64,000 nucleotides of DNA from Minisyncoccota bacterium (GCA_021734995.1 JAIPHX010000005.1:4099-68098), one strand, 5' to 3'. Counted from the first letter of the stretch, positions 2,042-64,000 are shown. Notes: a model not told the origin generated them from the letters alone. Numbers and translations: made by a program.

Positions 2042-2285
2042 TGGAAATATGTCTGATATAATAGTAAAGCACATTAAAATAACGTACGAGGAAGGAGATG
2101 AAAGAGTTAGATCTTTCGTGAAGTTTTTACAGAGTGACAGGTCTGATAATGTTTTAACAAAATATTATCAGCAAGCGATTTTAGAAAAAGATGGAATTTT
2201 AAATGTTTCTGATAAGGCAGGCAATGAATTCACTTTTGTGTGCAATAACGCCCATAGATGCAATTTACAATTAAGAGGAATGTAA
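2034..2285 (+). CDS. small hypothetical protein of about 83 aa; its start overlaps the stop of the upstream gene
   Basis: ORF in the compact gap before pheS with no recognisable motif. It does not resemble the PheS N-terminal helical arm. Confidence 0.3.
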   Translation: MNNGNMSDIIVKHIKITYEEGDERVRSFVKFLQSDRSDNVLTKYYQQAILEKDGILNVSDKAGNEFTFVCNNAHRCNLQLRGM

Positions 2286-2291
2286 AAAAAT

Positions 2292-3002
2292 ATGCAAAAC
2301 AAGAAAACAACAGAACATCCATTTTCAATACTTTCTAGACAGGCCTATGAAGTATTTGCTCAGCTTGGTTTTGAGATTGTGGTAGGTCCAGAGCTTGAGA
2401 CAGAATGGTATAATTTTGACGCATTAAATGTACCAAAAGATCATCCTGCCCGAGATATGCAAGATACTTTTTGGATTAAAGATTCTGTTGGAAAAGTTTT
2501 ACGAACACACACTACTTGTACTGCAGGTAGAGCAATAGAGAGGGCGTTAAAAGAAGATAGATTTCCTTCAGCATTTATCTCTGTTGGAAAGGTTTTTAGA
2601 AATGAGGCAACTGATGCGACACATGAAATGCAGTTTTTTCAAATAGATGGCATTATGGTTGGTGAAAAAAAAGACGGTATTTCTCTTGCCAACTTAAAAG
2701 GTGTATTGTCTCAGTTTTATAAAAAAATGTTAGGAGAAGAAATAGAAGTAGAATTCCGTCCTAGCTTTTTTCCATTTACAGAGCCATCTTTAGAAGTACA
2801 TACAAAATGGAAAGGCAAATGGCTTGAGATGATGGGGGCAGGAATGTTGCACCCAAAAGTTTTACAAAATCTTGGGCTTGATCCTGAAAAATATCAAGGA
2901 TTTGCTTTTGGTGGAGGTCTTGATCGTATCGCGATGATTAAATGGGGGGTGCCAGATGTCCGTATTTTTTATCAAGGAGATTTGCGTTTAAATCAATTTT
3001 AA
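2292..3002 (+). CDS. pheS: phenylalanyl-tRNA synthetase alpha subunit, minimal form (236 aa, lacks the N-terminal coiled-coil arm)
   Basis: Class II catalytic-core motifs: FNFDALNVPKDHPARDMQDTFWI and GAGMLHPKVL...FGGGLDRIAMIKWG. Confidence 0.85.
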   Translation: MQNKKTTEHPFSILSRQAYEVFAQLGFEIVVGPELETEWYNFDALNVPKDHPARDMQDTFWIKDSVGKVLRTHTTCTAGRAIERALKEDRFPSAFISVGKVFRNEATDATHEMQFFQIDGIMVGEKKDGISLANLKGVLSQFYKKMLGEEIEVEFRPSFFPFTEPSLEVHTKWKGKWLEMMGAGMLHPKVLQNLGLDPEKYQGFAFGGGLDRIAMIKWGVPDVRIFYQGDLRLNQF

Positions 3003-4878: not shown

Positions 4879-6507
4879 ATGAATGAAAATAACAACGAAC
4901 TAAGTGCAGCAGAAAAAATTCAATTAGCAAAAGAAAAGAAATTGAATAAAAAAACAGAAATTGAATCTCTTTATCAAGACGCTAAAAAAGAACTAGAAAA
5001 CACACTTAAAGAAATTAAGAGTGTAAAAGATTTACGAGAAAGTTTTAAACAAAAGAGGATTGATTTTACCAAACAACAAAGGGGAATAGTTGATGGTGTA
5101 AAAAAGGAAGATTTAGATATGTATAAAGATGAATTAACAGATAAATTTAGGGATACTTTTAAGCTTGAAATAGAACAATGGAAGGGGATGGGTGACGAAG
5201 TCGAAAATTTAAATAAAGAATTAAAAGAATTACAAACTTTAGCGAGTGTACAAGAAAAAAAATCTAAAGAATTATTTTACCAGACAGATGATGGTTTAAA
5301 AGTTCTAGAAAAAGAAAAAGATGAATTACTGGAGCAGGAAAAGATGAATTCATATATTGATGTTATAGATAAATTGTTTTCTCAAAATGGAGTAGATCAA
5401 CGTTATGGTAATTTTGGTCCATATAAAAAACATAACTTAGAAAATTTACTAGAAGATTTAATTCTTTGTGGTAACTTTTCTAAAGTTTTACCAGGATATT
5501 CATATGATAATTTTACTGGCCTAGATAAATCTATTTCTGAAGAAGAATATCAAAAGATATTTACAGAGTACATATTTACAAAAGTTTTGAAATCCGATTT
5601 CAAAAAACCATTTGAAGATAGGGGTTTAGAAAAAGGATTAAAAAATATTATTTCAGAACAAATTAAGTTTATGATTTATCTACATAAAAACAAAGGCAAA
5701 TTCACAGAGGTTCAAAACAAAACTTCACTTAATGATTTTATAGTAGAAAATGGTGAAAAAATTTCAACATTAAGAAATAAGATAGGAGATGTATTTGGAG
5801 AAGTTGTTAATGGATTCAGTAATATTTCCTCTGAAGATTATATAAAAGATTATATAAAAAATATTGATTATAGTTATTTAAAATTAAGTAAAAAAGAAAT
5901 TAGTAGTATTAATGATGAGATTTGGTCTGATATTAATCATTTATTACCTAAAAAAGTGGATGATATTACTTTTAATATTGATTCTGGTTACTATGCAGAT
6001 TCAAATTATTTTTCAGGTTTTTACAAAAAAGTAAGAGATATTCTTTTAAGTAAAAGAATGAACTTATTAAATACTGTTTTACCTCGTGTACAAAAACAAT
6101 TTAATGAGGAAGAAAATAAATTTATTAGCTTAAAGAAAAAGGACTTAGAAGAAACAATTAATTTATTAAGATTTAAAATTAATTATATAAACTATGTTGA
6201 AGATCAAATATTATCTTTGTTTAATAACTTTAATTCTAATAGTAGTCAAGGAATAGGAAAAGAAGTTGCTCAATATATAGGATATTTAAACAAAATTCAA
6301 AATTTTAAATTAAAACTAAATCAAAACTCTAATTATCCTACAAATTCTGTGAACTTAGAAACTCTAGATAGATATGTCCAACCAATAACCTTAGACGAAA
6401 AGGAGATTGTTATGTCTTCTGTTATTAAAGATTTTTATGAAAAAATAGAACGAATAATAAAACAATTGAATGTTGATTTGCAAGAAGATAAATCAAATAA
6501 TAACTAG
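4879..6507 (+). CDS. hypothetical K/E/N-rich coiled-coil protein
   Basis: Long ORF of low complexity with heptad-like K/E repeats and no catalytic motif. Confidence 0.5.
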   Translation: MNENNNELSAAEKIQLAKEKKLNKKTEIESLYQDAKKELENTLKEIKSVKDLRESFKQKRIDFTKQQRGIVDGVKKEDLDMYKDELTDKFRDTFKLEIEQWKGMGDEVENLNKELKELQTLASVQEKKSKELFYQTDDGLKVLEKEKDELLEQEKMNSYIDVIDKLFSQNGVDQRYGNFGPYKKHNLENLLEDLILCGNFSKVLPGYSYDNFTGLDKSISEEEYQKIFTEYIFTKVLKSDFKKPFEDRGLEKGLKNIISEQIKFMIYLHKNKGKFTEVQNKTSLNDFIVENGEKISTLRNKIGDVFGEVVNGFSNISSEDYIKDYIKNIDYSYLKLSKKEISSINDEIWSDINHLLPKKVDDITFNIDSGYYADSNYFSGFYKKVRDILLSKRMNLLNTVLPRVQKQFNEEENKFISLKKKDLEETINLLRFKINYINYVEDQILSLFNNFNSNSSQGIGKEVAQYIGYLNKIQNFKLKLNQNSNYPTNSVNLETLDRYVQPITLDEKEIVMSSVIKDFYEKIERIIKQLNVDLQEDKSNNN

Positions 6508-58648: not shown

Positions 58649-59943
58649 AAAATTTTCAAATCATTCTAATTACTGTTTTCATTGTCCTAGCGGTGGTAGG
58701 AGTTTTGGTTTTTTCTGGGATGATTCCTCTTGGTGAAAAAAAGAATGAAGAAGGGTCTGGTGGAACTGTTGTATTGTGGGGAACAGTTAGTTCTAGTAGT
58801 TTGTCAAAAGCTATTGAAAATTTCAATCATGACAATAATGTATATGTTTTACAGTATGTTCAAAAAAGAGAGGATTCTTTTGATAAAGACCTGTTGGAAG
58901 CTTTGGCTAGTGGAAAAGGACCTGATATATTTATTGTGCCTGAAAACTTAATTTATAAATACAGTAATAAGATTTTACCTATCCCTTATGAAAGTTTTCC
59001 TTTAGCATCTTTTCAACAGATTTTTATTTCACCAAGTGAAGTATTTCTTACATCTAAAGGAGCTCTCGCCTTTCCTCTATCTGTAGATCCTTTAATGATG
59101 TATTATAATAGAGCATTTTTGAATTCTAGTAATATAATAAACCCGCCATCTACTTGGAAAGAACTTTCGGAGATGGTTCCAGTATTAAATTTTAAAGATG
59201 AAAGTGGGAAATTAATTAAGACTACAGTAGCACTTGGGCATTTTTCAAACATAGAAAATGCTAAATATATACTAACAGGAATGTTTATGCAGGTCGGTAC
59301 CCCTATTGTTGTAGAAAATAATGGAGTATTTTTACCCAATCTAGTGAGCTCACTAAATTCTTCTAATAATGAAAATGTTTTGAATACATATACAAGCTTT
59401 GCCGACCCATTTAAAGAAAATTATTCTTGGAACAAATCAATGCCTAATTCCAAAGATGCTTTTACTTCTGGGAGTACGGCATTTTATTTTGGTTTTGCGA
59501 GTGAGTTGAAGTCTTTGATTGAACGTAACCCAAATTTGAATTTAATGGTAGCGCCGATGCCACAGATGGATAATTTACAAAATAAAATTACATCTGGAGA
59601 GATTAATGGTCTTGCAGTATCTGTTTTTTCCCAAAATAGAGATAGTGCTTTTTTGGTAGCTAATCTTTTGTCTAAGAGTGATTTTGCTAAAGAATTTGCA
59701 TCCGCCACAGGAACTATCCCGATTAGAAAAGATTTACTTATAAGCGACAAGAGTAATCAGTTTGAAACAGCATTCTATACTTCTGCTCTTTTCACTAGAG
59801 GTTGGATAGATCCTTCTCCAAAAGAATCTTATGCAATTTTCAAAGACGTAATAGAAGGTATTTTGTCAAATACTTTAAATCTATCAAGTGTAATAAGAGA
59901 GATAGATTCCAAATTAAATTTATTGTTTGATAAAAATATATGA
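58645..59943 (+). CDS. membrane-anchored extracellular solute-binding protein (ABC sugar-binding, SBP_bac_1-like), orphan
   Basis: N-terminal TM anchor, then KGPDIFIVPENLI...DPLMMYYNRAFL...PPSTWKELSEM, typical of family-1 SBPs. No permease or ATPase gene is adjacent. Confidence 0.6.
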   Translation: MKNFQIILITVFIVLAVVGVLVFSGMIPLGEKKNEEGSGGTVVLWGTVSSSSLSKAIENFNHDNNVYVLQYVQKREDSFDKDLLEALASGKGPDIFIVPENLIYKYSNKILPIPYESFPLASFQQIFISPSEVFLTSKGALAFPLSVDPLMMYYNRAFLNSSNIINPPSTWKELSEMVPVLNFKDESGKLIKTTVALGHFSNIENAKYILTGMFMQVGTPIVVENNGVFLPNLVSSLNSSNNENVLNTYTSFADPFKENYSWNKSMPNSKDAFTSGSTAFYFGFASELKSLIERNPNLNLMVAPMPQMDNLQNKITSGEINGLAVSVFSQNRDSAFLVANLLSKSDFAKEFASATGTIPIRKDLLISDKSNQFETAFYTSALFTRGWIDPSPKESYAIFKDVIEGILSNTLNLSSVIREIDSKLNLLFDKNI

Positions 59944-60371
59944 ATAAATTAAATAAATTTTTAGGTTTTGTGGTAGTGGGATACATACTTTTTTCCCCTA
60001 TGTTTTCTATGTTTTTATTTGCACAAAGTCCGCCACCTGCAGATACTGGATTGGTTGTATGTGGTACGAGAGATGATAGTGGTAATATTACCAAAAAATG
60101 TGGTTTTGATAGTTTTATTGAAACAATCAATAAAATTATGTTTTTTGCGATATACAATATAATGCTCCCAATTTCAGCTCTTTCTTTTGCATATGCTGGC
60201 GGTTTAATTTTATTTTCTGGGGGCGAAACAGCTAAAATACAAAAAGCAAAAGGTATCTTTACAAGTGTTTTGTGGGGTGTTGGTTGGATGATAGGTGCGT
60301 GGTTGGCAATATATTCAGTTGTTAATATTTTAGGTTATGAAGGGGACATCTTTAAATTTAATTCATTTTAA
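59940..60371 (+). CDS. small secreted two-helix membrane protein, pilin-like (TrbC/VirB2-like candidate), paralog 1
   Basis: Signal peptide, two Cys (CGTRDDSGNITKKCG), then helix-loop-helix (LPISALSFAYAGGLILFSGGETAKIQKAKGIFTSVLWGVGWMIGAWLAI). Its start overlaps the SBP stop. Confidence 0.5.
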   Translation: MNKLNKFLGFVVVGYILFSPMFSMFLFAQSPPPADTGLVVCGTRDDSGNITKKCGFDSFIETINKIMFFAIYNIMLPISALSFAYAGGLILFSGGETAKIQKAKGIFTSVLWGVGWMIGAWLAIYSVVNILGYEGDIFKFNSF

Positions 60372-60386
60372 TGTTATAATATTCTT

Positions 60387-60749
60387 ATGAAATTTAATTT
60401 TAATTCTTTGTTTAGTTTTGTATTAGTTGTATTAATGTTTGTAGTATTTCCATTAGTAGGAATAGCTCAAGATAATTGTGACGGGACCAAAGAAATATGT
60501 AATCCAATCCAGTCCAATAACATTACAGAGTTAATTAAAAACGTTTTAGAGCAAGCTTTAAGATTGGGTATGCCGTTGCTTGTGGTTGCTATTATCTACT
60601 CAGGTTTTCTTTTTGTAGCTGCACAAGGGAATGCTACAAAATTAGAAACCGCTCGAAAATCTTTTATGTATACAATGATCGGTGCCGCTATTTTGCTTGG
60701 ATCGTGGGCATTAGCACAATTATTAGCTGAAACAATACGGGCTTTATAA
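60387..60749 (+). CDS. pilin-like small membrane protein, paralog 2
   Basis: Signal peptide, CDGTKEIC, hydrophobic helix 1 (MPLLVVAIIYSGFLFVAAQG), basic loop (NATKLETARKS), helix 2 (FMYTMIGAAILLGSWALAQLL). Confidence 0.5.
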   Translation: MKFNFNSLFSFVLVVLMFVVFPLVGIAQDNCDGTKEICNPIQSNNITELIKNVLEQALRLGMPLLVVAIIYSGFLFVAAQGNATKLETARKSFMYTMIGAAILLGSWALAQLLAETIRAL

Positions 60750-60764
60750 ATTTAAAATTTAAAA

Positions 60765-61775
60765 ATGCAAAATTTAAAAAAAATATTTTCGTTGGTATTA
60801 ACAATAGGAATGTTATTTATTCCTATTGTTTCTTTTGCTCAGACTCCTCGTTCATGTAGTGATGGCGGAATGATTGGGTTGATTTGTAAAATAGGGGAAT
60901 TGCTTAATTATGCAATGCCTGTACTTATAAGTCTTGGAGTTGTCTTGTTCATTTGGGGAGTTGTATTATATGTAATAGGTGGTGGAGATGAAGCCAAAAC
61001 AAAAGGGCGTGATAGGATTTTATGGGGTCTTGGAGGTCTTACTATAATGTCTGCACTTTGGGGATTGGTAAATATGATGCTTAAGACTTTTGGTCTTAAT
61101 GGAAATCAAAACAGTATTCCAGATGGGTTGAATAGTTTAATTCCTACAGGCACAATTGAGGCTTGCAGTAGTAATGGAGGAATTACTTTAATTATTTGTA
61201 ATGTTAGTACAATTTTAAGTAAGTTAATTCCACTATTAATAAGTGTTGGTGTAATAATATTTATCTGGGGAGTTGTATTGTATGTGATAGGTGGTGGAGA
61301 TGAAGCCAAGACAAAAGGAAGAGATAGAATGCTTTGGGGGCTTGTGGGGTTGGCTGTAATCGCAGGAATGTGGGGACTAGTTGCGATGATTAATACTACT
61401 TTTGGGATTACTGATGGTTCTGATGTGGCTAATACATTTATACAAAGCAATAAAGGGTTCGGAGGGCAGACAGCTGGTGGAGGTTGTGAAATAGGGAATG
61501 ATAAAAAACTGCAAGGTCTTTTAAATTTTGCTACTTGCGTTCTTACGAAATCTATGGTGCCTTTGCTTGTTGCTATGGCTACTGTTGCATTTGTATGGGG
61601 AATTATTATGTATGTTATTTCTGGGGGTGATGAAAACAAAAAAGACAAAGGGAGGGAGTATATTATGTGGGGGCTTATTGGTCTGACTGTGATGGTTTCT
61701 GTTTGGGGATTGGTAAAAATATTGGGGACTACTTTTGGTATTGATCATGCTATACCTCAAGTACAAAAAAGTTAA
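60765..61775 (+). CDS. triple tandem fusion of the same pilin-like module (three repeats of about 110 aa)
   Basis: Three copies of a Cys-x-Cys module with the pattern ...P.L..GVV.FIWGVVLYVIGGGDEAKTKGRDR.LWGL.GL....WGLV.... Copies 1 and 2 are near-identical even at nucleotide level. Confidence 0.5.
   Translation: MQNLKKIFSLVLTIGMLFIPIVSFAQTPRSCSDGGMIGLICKIGELLNYAMPVLISLGVVLFIWGVVLYVIGGGDEAKTKGRDRILWGLGGLTIMSALWGLVNMMLKTFGLNGNQNSIPDGLNSLIPTGTIEACSSNGGITLIICNVSTILSKLIPLLISVGVIIFIWGVVLYVIGGGDEAKTKGRDRMLWGLVGLAVIAGMWGLVAMINTTFGITDGSDVANTFIQSNKGFGGQTAGGGCEIGNDKKLQGLLNFATCVLTKSMVPLLVAMATVAFVWGIIMYVISGGDENKKDKGREYIMWGLIGLTVMVSVWGLVKILGTTFGIDHAIPQVQKS
60951..61033 (+). repeat. intragenic nucleotide repeat, copy A (about 85% identical to copy B)
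   Basis: atttggggagttgtattatatgtaataggtggtggagatgaagccaaaacaaaagggcgtgataggatt... aligns with 61263-61345. Confidence 0.7.
61263..61345 (+). repeat. intragenic nucleotide repeat, copy B
   Basis: atctggggagttgtattgtatgtgataggtggtggagatgaagccaagacaaaaggaagagatagaatg.... Confidence 0.7.
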
Positions 61776-61931
61776 TAATTAAGAGTTACATGGAATATAA
61801 TTAGAGTTGAATATGTGAGTAACCATTATTTTGTATCCACAGTTCTTTATAAATAGTATACTTGCACTTATATAATTATGGTATAATAGAATTAACCTAT
61901 TTTTAGGAAAAAATTATTATTTTAAGGTCGC

Positions 61932-61957
61932 TTTCACAAATTTATTATTTTGTGAAA
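61932..61957. promoter_or_regulatory. 9-bp perfect inverted repeat (candidate operator) upstream of pilin-like paralog 4
   Basis: TTTCACAAA, an 8-nt spacer, then TTTGTGAAA, about 30 nt before the ATG. A TATAAT lies at about 61882. Confidence 0.3.
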
Positions 61958-61988
61958 ATATTATTATTAAACCCTAAAAGGGAAAAAT

Positions 61989-62369
61989 ATGAAACAAAAA
62001 TTAATTTTATTATCAATGTCGTTGTTTAGCTTTAGTTTGCCGATGTTGTCTTTTGCTGCTCAAAATAGTCCTATATGTGATAGGGTAGACAATAATACTC
62101 TACAAGCTATTATTTGTAAAGTTGGTGAGTTGTTGAATTTTGTTGTACCAGTTTTGGTTGGGCTTGGAGTTGTTATTTTTGTATGGGGAGTCATTATGTA
62201 TGTGATGTCAAGTGAAGAAGACGCAAAGACTAAAGGTAGAGACAGAATGATTTTTGGTATTGTTGGTTTGGCTGTGATTGTAGCAATGTGGGGGTTAGTA
62301 AGGATATTAATCAATACTTTTGATGTAGGAACTGGAGGAGTAATGAGTACCCCAGCTCTTCCTATTTAG
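61989..62369 (+). CDS. pilin-like small membrane protein, paralog 4
   Basis: Signal peptide, CDRVDNNTLQAIICKVGELLNF, then PVLVGLGVVIFVWGVIMYVMSSEEDAKTKGRDRMIFGIVGLAVIVAMWGLV. Confidence 0.5.
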   Translation: MKQKLILLSMSLFSFSLPMLSFAAQNSPICDRVDNNTLQAIICKVGELLNFVVPVLVGLGVVIFVWGVIMYVMSSEEDAKTKGRDRMIFGIVGLAVIVAMWGLVRILINTFDVGTGGVMSTPALPI

Positions 62370-62377
62370 TCTAAAAA

Positions 62378-62677
62378 ATGCCTAGCACCACTTATGAAGG
62401 TTTTTTAAATAATTTAATTACGCAAATTATAAATCCAGCTATTGTACTTATGTTTGCTTTAGCTACGGTTATATTTCTTTTTGGAGTATTTAAATTTATT
62501 TCAAAAGCAGATCAAGAGGAGGGTAGGACAGATGGGAAAAATAGTATGCTTTGGGGTGTGCTTGGTATGACAATAATGATTGGCGTCTGGTTTTTATTAG
62601 GTGTTATTATTGAGACTTTTGGAATAGAAGATATAAAACCTGAGACAAACACTGTTCATTTAAAACCATTTCAATAA
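62378..62677 (+). CDS. divergent pilin-like small membrane protein, paralog 5 (no signal peptide or Cys pair)
   Basis: AIVLMFALATVIFLFGVFKFISKADQEEGRTDGKNSMLWGVLGMTIMIGVWFLLGVI has the same helix-loop-helix pattern. It starts 8 nt after the preceding gene. Confidence 0.4.
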   Translation: MPSTTYEGFLNNLITQIINPAIVLMFALATVIFLFGVFKFISKADQEEGRTDGKNSMLWGVLGMTIMIGVWFLLGVIIETFGIEDIKPETNTVHLKPFQ

Positions 62678-62743: not shown

Positions 62744-63571
62744 TTAAGCGTGTTTTAATGGAATGGAGCGATAATACTTTTCAGCACCGAAGAATTTTCT
62801 CCATATAAAGATTATAGCAATAACTAATACTATAAAGATAAACCATTGTAATATTCCTGAAGGTAAAAAACTATTTGATCCAAACACAGCGTTAGATGTC
62901 AAACCTTTATAACTTGAGTTGTCTGTGTTTCTACTGTTGTAAAAAGATGATAAGGCATTAGCTGATAGATTGGAGTCGTTTCTGCTTGTGGTAGAATCAT
63001 AGCTTGTTGAGTTAAAATTACTATTACTATTTTGGCTTGTACTAGTATTAGTGTTGCTTGTATTGTTATTTGAATTTGGATTTATAGAACCAGAAAAGTT
63101 TTGATTTGCATTTGTTGCTGGGGTTATATACAAGATAGCACTATTGGATATCCCTCCTCCTGGAGTTCCATTCAATACACTAATGGTATGATTTTTTACA
63201 TTCTTGATATCTTTTTCTTCTAATTGAATTATCATTCTAGTAGAATTTACATAAGAAGCTGTACGAGGTGCGTTATTGATTCTTACTACAGAAGTTGAAG
63301 TGAATCCATTTCCAGTGATAGTCACATTGTACACATCTGCTCCTTTTGGAATGTTGTTTGGAGTAATAAAGGAAATGTAAGGAGTAGGATTAAGAGGTAT
63401 GTTGTATTCGTCTTCGTAATTATTATCACTCTCAAAAATTGGTGGTTGGTAGAAAGTTACATAACCAGCAGATACATTTTGAGCTTTAAAAAACAAGACT
63501 GAAAAGATAATTATCAATCCAAAAGCAAAGTATTTTGCACTTATTTGATTGTTTTTAATTGTTTTAAACAT
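62744..63571 (-). CDS. cell-surface protein: signal peptide, Ig-like (IPT/TIG-like) domain, S/N/T-rich low-complexity stalk, C-terminal TM anchor
   Basis: N-terminal hydrophobic signal, VTITGNGFTSTSVVRINN beta-rich domain, then a long N/S/T repeat tract, then FIFIVLVIAIIFIW... Confidence 0.5.
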   Translation of the reverse strand: MFKTIKNNQISAKYFAFGLIIIFSVLFFKAQNVSAGYVTFYQPPIFESDNNYEDEYNIPLNPTPYISFITPNNIPKGADVYNVTITGNGFTSTSVVRINNAPRTASYVNSTRMIIQLEEKDIKNVKNHTISVLNGTPGGGISNSAILYITPATNANQNFSGSINPNSNNNTSNTNTSTSQNSNSNFNSTSYDSTTSRNDSNLSANALSSFYNSRNTDNSSYKGLTSNAVFGSNSFLPSGILQWFIFIVLVIAIIFIWRKFFGAEKYYRSIPLKHA

Positions 63572-63627
63572 GCATATAGTATAGCACCTTTTAGCAGAAA
63601 AGTCAAGGGGGTAGGGGATACAAACAG

Positions 63628-63672
63628 AAAAAGCATAAAAGACTTATAAATAAAGCTTTTATGTGGTTTTTG
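63628..63672 (-). terminator. intrinsic terminator downstream of tRNA-Leu (minus strand)
   Basis: On the minus strand: CATAAAAGctttatttataagtCTTTTATG then cttttt. Confidence 0.4.
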
Positions 63673-63677
63673 TAAGG

Positions 63678-63759
63678 TGCCGGAGGGGAGACTTGAACTC
63701 CCATGAGTCACCTCGCTTGCTCCTAAGGCAAGTGCGTCTACCAATTTCGCCACCCCGGC
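63678..63759 (-). tRNA. trnL: tRNA-Leu (anticodon TAG), class II with a long variable arm
   Basis: The reverse complement GCCGGGGTGGCGAAATTGGTAGACGCACTTGCCTTAGGAGCAAGCGAGGTGACTCATGGGAGTTCAAGTCTCCCCTCCGGCA folds with a 3-bp D stem, anticodon loop CTTAGGA and a long variable arm. Confidence 0.85.
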
Positions 63760-63791
63760 ATGTAATATAGCGCTCATAAGTATTAAATATA

Positions 63792-64000
63792 GGCGCTGTG
63801 CGCCCAGAGGGAATCTCGCTTTACAAGCGCTGGTGCTTTTCCACTCGCTTCGCTCGTAAGGAAAAGCCTTTCGATTCCCCCACGCAAGCAAATAAATTTG
63901 CCTGCTTGGGCGCTGTGCGCCCAGAGGGAATCTCGCTTTACAAGCGCTGGTGCTTTTCCACTCGCTTCGCTCGTAAGGAAAAGCCTTTCGATTCCCCCAC
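63792..64000. repeat. GC-rich 117-bp tandem direct repeat, at least 1.8 copies, truncated by the window end
   Basis: ggcgctgtgcgcccagagggaatctcgctttacaagcgctggtgcttttccactcgcttcgctcgtaaggaaaagcctttcgattcccccacgcaagcaaataaatttgcctgcttg restarts at 63909 with identical sequence. It contains several internal hairpins (GGCGCtgtGCGCC, CGCTTtacaAGCG, CTTTTCC...GGAAAAG). Confidence 0.7.

Follow-up and report, generated by a model that had tools for sequence, protein, structure and literature searches.

Positions 63792-64000 of the window, the 64,000-nt stretch of a Minisyncoccota bacterium genome analyzed here (GCA_021734995.1 JAIPHX010000005.1:4099-68098), contain a GC-rich, hairpin-forming repeat next to a tRNA-Leu(TAG) gene. 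We think it probable that this array consists of at least two tandem copies of a 117-nt non-autonomous site-specific insertion cassette, the target of which extends from the T-loop to the 3' end of a tRNA gene, and that it lies immediately 3' of tRNA-Lys(CTT). Each cassette is made up of O', an inverted copy of the last ~22 nt of the gene that is split by a hairpin (Pa); a core that forms a three-way junction; O, a direct copy of the gene end; and a variable joint. It belongs to an apparently undescribed family that inserts just behind genes for tRNA or transfer-messenger RNA (tmRNA; together, t(m)RNA) in ultra-small Patescibacteria. Units of this family occupy sites in the 3' flanks of t(m)RNA genes, their flanks match the local gene, they are present or absent among relatives, and their core types are exchangeable between sites.

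A tandem repeat at the window end

The repeat is real and comprises at least two identical copies of a GC-rich hairpin element. A 92-nt sequence at 63792-63883 is repeated exactly and in direct orientation at 63909-64000, a spacing of 117 nt, and a 34-mer taken from it occurs twice in the window, compared with none expected (100 shuffles); the repeat is absent from the output of Tandem Repeats Finder. An earlier note on this DNA had described an exact 117-bp head-to-tail unit. The exact repeat and its spacing bear this out, but the visible extent of the array is only 1.79 periods and the 25-nt joint at 63884-63908 is present once, so that the exact 117-bp unit is an extrapolation. We consider it a credible one, because sister elements in independent assemblies form exact two-copy tandems (157 nt twice at locus L010 and 132 nt twice at locus L005). 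As that note had said, the unit is GC-rich in an AT-rich genome: its G+C content is 54%, and that of the 92-nt block 58%, versus 32.6% for the window.

The unit lacks a start codon, as previously described, although four reading frames rather than two are open across it. These four frames were translated and searched against 5.8 billion proteins as a test for spurious open reading frames (ORFs); no homolog was found, and the view that the unit is non-coding can be retained. A 116-aa ORF with a TTG start (63541-63891, minus strand), which spans tRNA-Leu and runs into the repeat, is spurious; it is the sort of ORF to which these GC-rich arrays give rise in AT-rich genomes.

An independent Logan assembly of the same organism (L045, with a 100%-identical GyrA) ends inside tRNA-Leu, just before the array, which indicates that the array breaks assemblies without confirming it independently. 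Searches with the three proteins adjoining the array in the window yielded no database record that extends the contig, and the P0124 contigs are too short, ending before the array site. Among independent assemblies, contigs end inside or at the edge of unit arrays at L003, L004, L012, L024, L045 and the window end. Unit arrays, in which five contigs end, are a recurrent cause of assembly breaks in metagenome-assembled genomes (MAGs) of Patescibacteria.

The copied sequence is the end of tRNA-Lys(CTT)

The 3' end of the adjacent tRNA-Leu(TAG), TCTCCCCTCCGGCACC, has no copy in the unit. To identify the copied gene we turned to syntenic relatives, which were reached via homologs of the window GyrA. 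On the minus strand of L046, whose GyrA is 86% identical, the order of genes is tRNA-Cys, tRNA-Leu(taa), tRNA-Lys(ctt), tRNA-Leu(tag) and then a homolog of the window's 275-aa gene. The tRNA-Lys(ctt) of L046 reads GCGCCCA...GGGGGTTCGATTCCCTCTGGGCGCACCA, which is the sequence copied in both orientations in the window unit; the copied end, GATTCCCTCTGGGCGCACA with GCGCCCA...GGGGGAATCGAA as its inverted copy, is thus that of tRNA-Lys(CTT).

The spacer between tRNA-Lys(ctt) and tRNA-Leu(tag) is 30 nt in L046 and 48 nt in L053, L054 and L055, and contains no unit in these three lineages, while the corresponding interval of L058 is 181 nt and contains a different unit with a core resembling type A (see below). 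The locus is therefore polymorphic for insertions, being empty in L046, L053, L054 and L055, occupied by a type-A-like unit in L058, and occupied by a type-B array in the window. Synteny with L046, L053 and L058 places tRNA-Lys(CTT) just past base 64000, directly upstream of the array, where the gene would terminate in GATTCCCTCTGGGCGCAC. Accordingly placed, the window array should be an insertion downstream of tRNA-Lys(CTT), and would lie within a Cys-Leu-Lys-Leu tRNA operon on the minus strand.

These results recast what had been claimed about the site. The array does adjoin tRNA-Leu(tag), on its 5' side and across a 32-nt gap, but is unrelated to the sequence of that gene; the suggestion that it represents the attachment (att) or end region of an element integrated at tRNA-Leu was right about an insertion at a tRNA gene, but the target would be tRNA-Lys(CTT). 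Nor does the array look like the end of a large integrase-bearing element: what was inserted is the 117-nt unit itself.

Anatomy of the unit

Read along the minus strand, one period consists of GCGCCCA, A, Pa, GU, GGGGGAAUCGAA, AGGC and the two-hairpin core, and GAUUCCCUC-UGGGCGC-ACA. GCGCCCA pairs with UGGGCGC, and GGGGGAAUC with GAUUCCCUC, so that the unit forms a long stem with Pa as a side hairpin and the three-way junction at its tip. The parts, all on the minus strand, are as follows.

63676-63759, minus: tRNA-Leu(TAG) (ARAGORN; Rfam tRNA, 56 bits), the gene downstream of the array and not the target of the element
63760-63791, minus: AT-rich spacer of 32 nt from the array to tRNA-Leu, from the sequence; shows no conservation relative to the 30-48-nt spacers of relatives
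63792-63796, minus: GCGCC, initial 5 nt of a further inverted acceptor copy, from the sequence
63797-63815, minus: O of copy 1, the direct copy GATTCCCTCTGGGCGCACA; 18 of 19 nt equal the L046 tRNA-Lys(ctt) 3' end, GGTTCGATTCCCTCTGGGCGCACCA
63816-63869, minus: type-B core of copy 1, a three-way junction, from folds; homologous cores at L001, L005, L014 and L010
63870-63881, minus: complement of the T-loop and T-stem 3' strand, GGGGGAATCGAA, which pairs with GATTCCCTC of O to form P1
63884-63905, minus: Pa hairpin, GCAGGCAAA-UUUA-UUUGCUUGC, 9 bp, from the inverted repeat and folds
63907-63913, minus: GCGCCCA, the acceptor 3' strand copied in inverted orientation; all 7 positions form Watson-Crick pairs with the TGGGCGC on each side
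63914-64000, minus: second copy, truncated at the window end; identical to copy 1 at all 87 nt
63914-63932, minus: O of copy 2
63933-63986, minus: core of copy 2
63987-63998, minus: T-loop/T-stem complement of copy 2
63999-64000, minus: GT of copy 2

The direct copy GATTCCCTCTGGGCGCACA covers the 3' part of the T-loop, the T-stem 3' strand, the acceptor 3' strand and the discriminator of tRNA-Lys(CTT). Pa is placed exactly at the boundary between acceptor and T-stem of the inverted copy, framed by A (63906) and GU (63883-63882). Within the core, J1/2 (AGGC) follows the GAA that closes the T-loop complement, J2/3 is ACCA, and GA closes the junction; P2 is GCUUUUCC/GGAAAAGC with a 17-nt loop, and P3 is CGCUU-GUA-AAGCG. 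Five helices account for the internal inverted repeats, in keeping with the minimum of four reported before. The joint between O and the next O' is 3 nt (ACA) in the window and a terminator hairpin or a cargo gene at other loci. The array terminates in the hairpin TGGGCGC-ACA-GCGCC, formed by the preceding O and the GCGCC at 63792-63796; a terminator-like scan match covers 63806-63790, with a weak T-rich tail.

A family of units behind tRNA and tmRNA genes

Two probes taken from the unit's 5' part, first a 22-mer and later an 18-mer, were used to search metagenomes and one-genome-per-species contigs. The 18-mer had 23 genome matches, of which about 10 were chance or coding matches (L007-L009, L011, L013, L015, L017, L018, L021, L025) and were set aside. 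The remaining loci share a common order. First comes the t(m)RNA gene, in most cases with a terminator-like hairpin (L) behind it; then follow the inverted copy of the acceptor 3' strand, Pa within its A...GU frame, and the segment complementary to the T-stem 3' strand and T-loop; a GC-rich core and a direct copy of the gene end, starting from the T-loop, complete the unit. This architecture is found behind tRNA-Lys, -Ile, -Arg, -Ala, -Leu and tmRNA genes. The location at a t(m)RNA 3' end is seen directly at L001, L005, L006, L010, L014, L019, L020, L022, L024, L038 and L058, and a homologous Pa with the A...GU frame is present at L001, L019, L038, L024, L014, L020 and L010. Units were found in Paceibacterota, Saccharibacteria, Yonathbacteria, further Patescibacteria and a single Pseudomonadota MAG (L020, after tRNA-Leu(caa)); a Burkholderiales MAG (L023) is possibly also a host.

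The units, which are 105-175 nt long and usually without genes, differ in their cores. Type B, the type of the window, also occurs after tRNA-Lys(ttt) (L001 and L005), tRNA-Ala(cgc) (L014) and tmRNA (L010), while type A occurs after tmRNA at many loci and also after tRNA-Lys(ttt), tRNA-Arg and tRNA-Leu; unit 3 of L001 and the units after the L010 tRNA-Ile represent further types. Some arrays are mixed (B, A, C, A' at L001; A, A, B at L005), and array order and composition differ among the near-identical tRNA-Lys(ttt) loci L001, L003, L004 and L005. Two sites per genome are occupied at L010 (tmRNA and tRNA-Ile) and L019 (tmRNA and tRNA-Arg). Degenerate units were found at L028, L058 and the L024 tRNA-Ile.

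Across the 501 kb examined, all true units are in arrays downstream of t(m)RNA genes or cargo, and matches outside arrays are chance or coding matches. A 34-mer exact-match scan of viral and genome contigs found nothing, a 16-mer scan of viral contigs found only two chance matches, in GC-rich coding DNA, and a BLAST search of phages and plasmids with the window array and the proteobacterial unit found no match. No published description of such elements was found in the literature, the coverage of which was incomplete.

The flanks of the units match the neighboring gene

As SmpB is encoded directly upstream of tmRNA in these bacteria, SmpB homologs were used to fetch tmRNA loci independently of the motif. 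At L038, the tmRNA T-arm is GCGAG/CTCGC, and the unit contains TGTGGAAGTG...CGAGAATCGAA, a perfect complement of the last 22 nt of the tmRNA; of the loci fetched with SmpB, L041 is without a unit and the unit of L028 is degenerate. All 54 t(m)RNA genes in the 501 kb were also screened for units. Behind the L010 tRNA-Ile(tat) are two exact 157-nt units, the inverted copy of which, CCAGGACTCGAA, fits that gene's own T-arm CCAGG/CCTGG; a 24-nt direct repeat is present three times at this site, one copy being the tRNA-Ile end. Thus the T-loop/T-stem complement varies with the local T-arm: GGGGGAATCGAA in the window, CGAGAATCGAA at L038 and CCAGGACTCGAA at the L010 tRNA-Ile. Likewise, the type-A unit behind the L019 tRNA-Arg(cct) has flanks that match tRNA-Arg; the tRNA-Arg and tmRNA units of L019 are 96% identical over 50 nt spanning the P2 hairpin (BLAST), whereas their flanks differ.

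The inverted copy is the Watson-Crick complement of the 3' strand and not a copy of the 5' acceptor strand, and its match is to the tail encoded in the genome (ACA or ACCA), not to the mature CCA; it is therefore a palindrome partner of the gene end at the DNA level. The direct repeats are 19 nt in the window (O, 63797-63815 and 63914-63932) and 14-19 nt at L001 and L005. Several units that stand alone behind tmRNA (L006, L019, L024) have an intact core and inverted copy but a heavily decayed distal direct repeat. In the L019 tmRNA itself (2219-2635, minus strand), the acceptor 3' strand CTTCTCC faces the 5' strand GGGGATG with a U.U mismatch at pair 6, and the inverted copy of the unit behind it corresponds to CGTCTCC, the acceptor version of L006.

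Strand preference and conservation of structure

Folding predictions agree with the earlier description of the unit as highly structured: one period has a predicted energy of -49 kcal/mol on the minus strand (z = -4.3) and -39 kcal/mol on the plus strand (z = -2.6), and across runs the values were -49 to -55 and -39 to -44 kcal/mol, respectively. The tRNA-sense strand is the more stable in 13 of 15 family members. For nine type-A units, RNAalifold predicted 30 pairs, 18 of which show pair-keeping changes on both sides; the base of the type-A P3, GGUCG...UGACC, contains a G.U pair in eight of the nine sequences, and G.U pairs number 19 versus 4 A.C pairs in the alignment. Although their sequences differ, the type-B units of the window, L001, L014 and L010 retain helices Pa, P2 and P3, and compensatory changes occur in P2 and P3 among the type-B cores of L001, L005, L014 and L010. 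By these models it is a particular strand that folds, either as RNA or as single-stranded DNA.

Possible mechanism and alternative explanations

If the units are insertion cassettes, as we favor, entry would occur by recombination within O, the T-loop-to-3'-end segment of the gene, through an enzyme supplied in trans that would act on a small circular or folded single-stranded form. The O':O stem mimics the tRNA gene's double-stranded end and has Pa projecting where T-stem meets acceptor, and this mimicry, the position of Pa and the strand bias together suggest that a folded single strand is recognized. An element with the order O, joint, O', core that recombines via O would generate the observed order of gene, joint, O', core and O. 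Since every new O would be a fresh target, head-to-tail arrays would result, and identical copies could come from unequal exchange between the 19-24-nt direct repeats. The joint appears to be shaped by position, being a terminator at the end of an operon and almost nothing ahead of another tRNA. Flanks fitting many tRNAs might arise by correction of imperfect palindromes through template switching, by exchange at the conserved P1, or by guide-based targeting.

A number of observations weigh against this interpretation. The parent tRNA-Lys(CTT) lies outside the window, and its presence would follow from synteny. A classical att crossover in the T-loop swaps the acceptor strand, which makes a single core with many tRNA flanks hard to explain, and known tRNA-targeting integrative elements do not have an inverted copy. 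No integrase, transposase, reverse transcriptase or other recombinase was found beside any array (~8-22 kb per locus), and the window is core genome with housekeeping genes only (PheST, GyrB/A, RpoB/C, DnaG and similar), the ORFs of which show no recombinase domain by inspection. Core and inverted copy remain intact beside a decayed distal repeat, a hint that the core is selected where it stands and thus has a function rather than being a purely selfish scar. An array inside a tRNA operon must be transcribed, which argues against a purely selfish element. Finally, the terminator behind the tmRNA 3' end (~3915 onward) of L028 and L030, two populations with identical SmpB, looks host-derived rather than element-borne: in L028 the tmRNA ends in CCACA, and behind it lie the terminator, a degenerate unit and a 231-aa gene, and in L030 it ends in CCACCA and is followed by a 1.8-kb two-gene island (one gene weakly PLD-like), the remnant CTTCCACA and the same terminator.

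It is conceivable, although we would not expect it, that the units are the recombination ends of a cassette system in which t(m)RNA genes take the role of attI and the target is set by base complementarity instead of a fixed sequence recognized by a protein. Small circular or single-stranded cassettes, mostly empty and some with a gene, would then be captured at the T-loop-to-3'-end segment via the folded hairpin. Related to this is the rather improbable notion, drawn by analogy, of a single-strand (DNA or RNA) mobile element in which O', arranged around a protein-bound Pa, would be a base-pairing guide to the t(m)RNA gene end. The ends of IS200/IS605 elements use internal guide bases, and the integron attC and CTX-phage hairpins recombine as folded single strands. 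Such an element would fit the tracking by O' of the T-stem and acceptor of every target, the placement of Pa exactly at their boundary in a constant A...GU frame, the strand-specific folding and the cassette-like layouts of gene, hairpin and O'-core-O; each unit ends in a new target copy, which would explain the head-to-tail arrays. However, O' would be occupied by O in the folded unit and thus unavailable as a guide, neither circular nor excised forms were observed, and none of the loci is linked to a HUH, tyrosine or serine recombinase or to a reverse transcriptase; the likeness to IS200/IS605, attC and CTX is one of analogy.

The tandem structured small RNA proposed in the earlier note is still a live rival, given that the tRNA-sense strand folds best and that the array lies in what would be a tRNA operon, but on balance we find it unlikely. 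A functional structured RNA would be co-transcribed in tandem with the tRNA operon and cut out by tRNA-processing enzymes. Its fold would resemble a tRNA, with an acceptor-like stem, a side hairpin and a T-stem extended into a three-way junction, and toward the 3' half of the neighboring tRNA or tmRNA it could play the part of a decoy or of an antisense partner. The strand preference (z = -4.3; the same strand in 13 of 15 units), the compensatory changes and the invariant G.U pair all favor it. With no terminator between the window units, transcription together with tRNA-Leu is expected; the helix layout of acceptor strand, A, hairpin, GU and T-stem mirrors a tRNA; and the inverted copy retains perfect complementarity to the t(m)RNA end even at loci with a decayed distal repeat. 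Yet units are present or absent among close relatives, different core types occupy one site, and copy number and order vary by strain; cargo genes occur in or beside units, and most units after operon-final genes sit behind a terminator-like hairpin. The fit of the inverted copy to the genomic ACA tail rather than CCA, and its pairing with the 3' tail, disfavor a tRNA-like activity, and the units match no Rfam family. Much the least plausible explanation, to which we give very little credence, is that the units are inert leftovers, the ends of larger islands repeatedly integrated and deleted at t(m)RNA genes, with the window copies made by slippage. Cargo islands do occur at the same sites (1.8 kb at L030; L028, L012 and L022), direct repeats of a t(m)RNA end are classic att scars, and there are degenerate versions at L028, L058 and the L024 tRNA-Ile. 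Inert remains, however, would hardly keep their core helices via compensatory changes across phylum-level distances, carry the same core types at different genes with intact and matched flanks, or be 100% identical within arrays, and no full-length parent element with such ends was found.

Comparison with known systems

The closest parallel to the cassettes that we favor is provided by the ssrA genomic islands (ssrA-GIs) of Dehalococcoides, tandem islands with 20-bp direct repeats of the ssrA end and insertion in the T-loop (PMC3146451). Integrase-less members are thought to move by accretion, and array content varies among strains (PMC3146451). The units resemble these islands and cis-mobilizable elements (CIMEs) in lying 3' of a t(m)RNA gene, in their ~20-bp repeats that start in the T-loop, in their tandem head-to-tail arrays of variable content and in the existence of integrase-less members (PMC3146451). 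They differ in being ~0.1 kb rather than kilobases, in having an inverted target copy split by a hairpin and a structured core, in lacking a nearby integrase, and in that one core type serves many t(m)RNA targets. Of the hallmarks of t(m)RNA-targeting elements, location at the gene's 3' end (in the window, from synteny), direct repeats and an empty-site polymorphism were found, while an integrase was not (~8-22 kb per locus). We class the units with the t(m)RNA-targeting insertion elements, and there is a substantial chance that their mechanism is of a new kind.

Integrons maintain cassette arrays at a fixed site and are characterized by intI, attI and the attC palindrome with its RYYYAAC...GTTRRRY boxes. 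The units share with them cassette arrays beside a fixed site and better folding of one strand, they resemble them in an imperfect palindrome conserved in structure rather than sequence, an extrahelical feature and a variable, sometimes branched tip, and some units consist of a gene followed by the hairpin; unlike integrons, their stem is the end of the neighboring t(m)RNA and most cassettes are empty. The resemblance to an attC-type site, which lies in the O':O stem, the Pa bulge-hairpin and the variable core with its three-way junction, is one of fold only. Neither intI nor attI is present upstream of the arrays, and no RYYYAAC/GTTRRRY boxes were recognized by eye. The folded attP of CTX phage likewise has two inverted target copies, ~50-100 nt apart, and a stem that mimics the duplex target; in contrast to CTX and other Xer-exploiting elements, the target here is a t(m)RNA end rather than dif, and there is neither a phage genome nor any evidence of a link to Xer.

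The repetitive extragenic palindromic (REP) sequences, bacterial interspersed mosaic elements (BIMEs) and REPINs of proteobacteria are built on imperfect palindromes of 20-40 nt that begin with a conserved tetranucleotide at the 5' end, are dispersed in hundreds of copies and go together with a RAYT gene. Like these elements, the units are short, GC-rich, extragenic hairpins in tandem clusters, often after gene ends, and a ~20-nt sequence occurs in alternating orientation with two alternating linkers (joint and core). Unlike in these elements, the repeated sequence is a copy of a tRNA end rather than a palindrome, it occurs only in t(m)RNA 3' flanks, and neither a GTAG head nor a RAYT was seen.

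Several other identities were considered and rejected. The repeat is not a clustered regularly interspaced short palindromic repeat (CRISPR) array, as had already been concluded: the 92-nt block is too long for a CRISPR repeat (about 23-50 nt), the 25 nt between copies are the conserved Pa shared with other loci and not a unique spacer, and sister arrays are identical over whole periods of 132 and 157 nt. It is not a tRNA gene or pseudogene: tRNA-Leu and tRNA-Thr are the only tRNAs that ARAGORN and Rfam recognize in the window, and the unit reproduces no more of a tRNA than the acceptor 3' strand, T-stem and T-loop, its 5' strand being a perfect complement that includes the 3' tail. Nor is the inverted copy derived from the tRNA 5' acceptor strand, as its position 3 is the complement of U70 and not the G of a G.U pair; it cannot serve as a primer-binding site for a mature tRNA, as it fits the genomic ACA tail and not CCA, and there is no similarity to the tmRNA 5' end. 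Inverted termini (P1 plus the acceptor stem) are present, as in a miniature inverted-repeat transposable element (MITE), but a MITE would have a target-site duplication of only 2-10 bp and copies dispersed in the genome; here the sequences outside the termini are inverted again, the 19-24-nt direct repeat overlaps the terminus, and all copies are in t(m)RNA 3' flanks. A review of prokaryotic MITEs leaves tRNA unmentioned. Casposon-type insertion, with its 14-15-bp duplication, is at odds with intact repeats of 19-24 nt, the absence of Cas1 and polymerase genes and an element of ~0.1 kb. A 5S rRNA would fit in size but has no Rfam match, and a hammerhead or other self-cleaving ribozyme is excluded by unfit junction sequences and, again, no Rfam match. 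The Rfam search that had been proposed as a check on the repeat identified no family: a cmscan of window 63500-64000 against Rfam 15 at E <= 10 left the repeat without a match, and at the gathering threshold 12 related loci gave no families other than tRNA, tmRNA and, elsewhere, LOOT, leaving the units uncovered.

Cargo and neighboring genes

At some loci the units are associated with genes. At L005, an LD-carboxypeptidase gene is followed by a terminator hairpin, O', Pa, a type-B core and O; at L012, an IrrE/XRE and DUF4411 pair precedes the same hairpin/O'-core-O module; and at L022 a small nucleoside-deoxyribosyltransferase-like gene lies inside a unit. The 1.8-kb island of L030 is in the 3' end of tmRNA, and cargo islands at such sites are also present at L028, L012 and L022. 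Upstream of the arrays are genes for SmpB, FtsH, DNA polymerase I or other tRNAs.

Homologous small ORFs at L001 (5146-5667, minus strand) and L005 (7241-7660, minus strand), 0.1-2.5 kb downstream of the tRNA-Lys(ttt) arrays, carry an HNH-like motif, CHHLKPCQRGG...N...H..WHLFF. We considered these ORFs and set them aside: they have no significant Pfam match, and the synteny of two related genomes may account for their position. In L012 (Yonathbacteria), a LOOT RNA (RF03000, 92 bits; 4916-5036, minus strand) is found a few kb from the unit array. The same contig has a 115-nt tRNA-Leu-like gene (2318-2432, minus strand) that matches the Rfam tRNA model end to end, so that an insertion of ~30 nt seems to lie inside it, and a tRNA-like gene with a broken acceptor 3' strand, TCCTTAG (2221-2307), directly before the IrrE/XRE and DUF4411 pair, which has the look of an island junction.

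In the window, five small membrane proteins encoded at 59940-62677 have the common motif GGGDEAKTKGRDR, and the one at 60765-61775 contains the domain three times. The identical genes of L045 carry the Pfam domain T4SS_pilin (PF18895), and the cluster is kept next to gyrA in L046, L053 and L058. A close GyrA homolog of 1213 aa (P0139) contains an intein domain (PF14890); the window GyrA is without an intein.

Implications

Genes for tRNA and tmRNA are classic landing sites for islands and prophages. To our knowledge, there is no earlier description of a 0.1-kb element that carries its landing site in both orientations and is re-tailored for each tRNA. Should the inverted copy be a guide, or the hairpin be recombined as a folded single strand, the units would constitute a compact, naturally reprogrammable site-specific insertion system. 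A cassette system, if true, would establish a new class of mobile element guided by nucleic acid, one that is common in Patescibacteria and extends to Proteobacteria. If the units are instead RNAs, they would represent a new class of tRNA mimics in organisms with minimal genomes.

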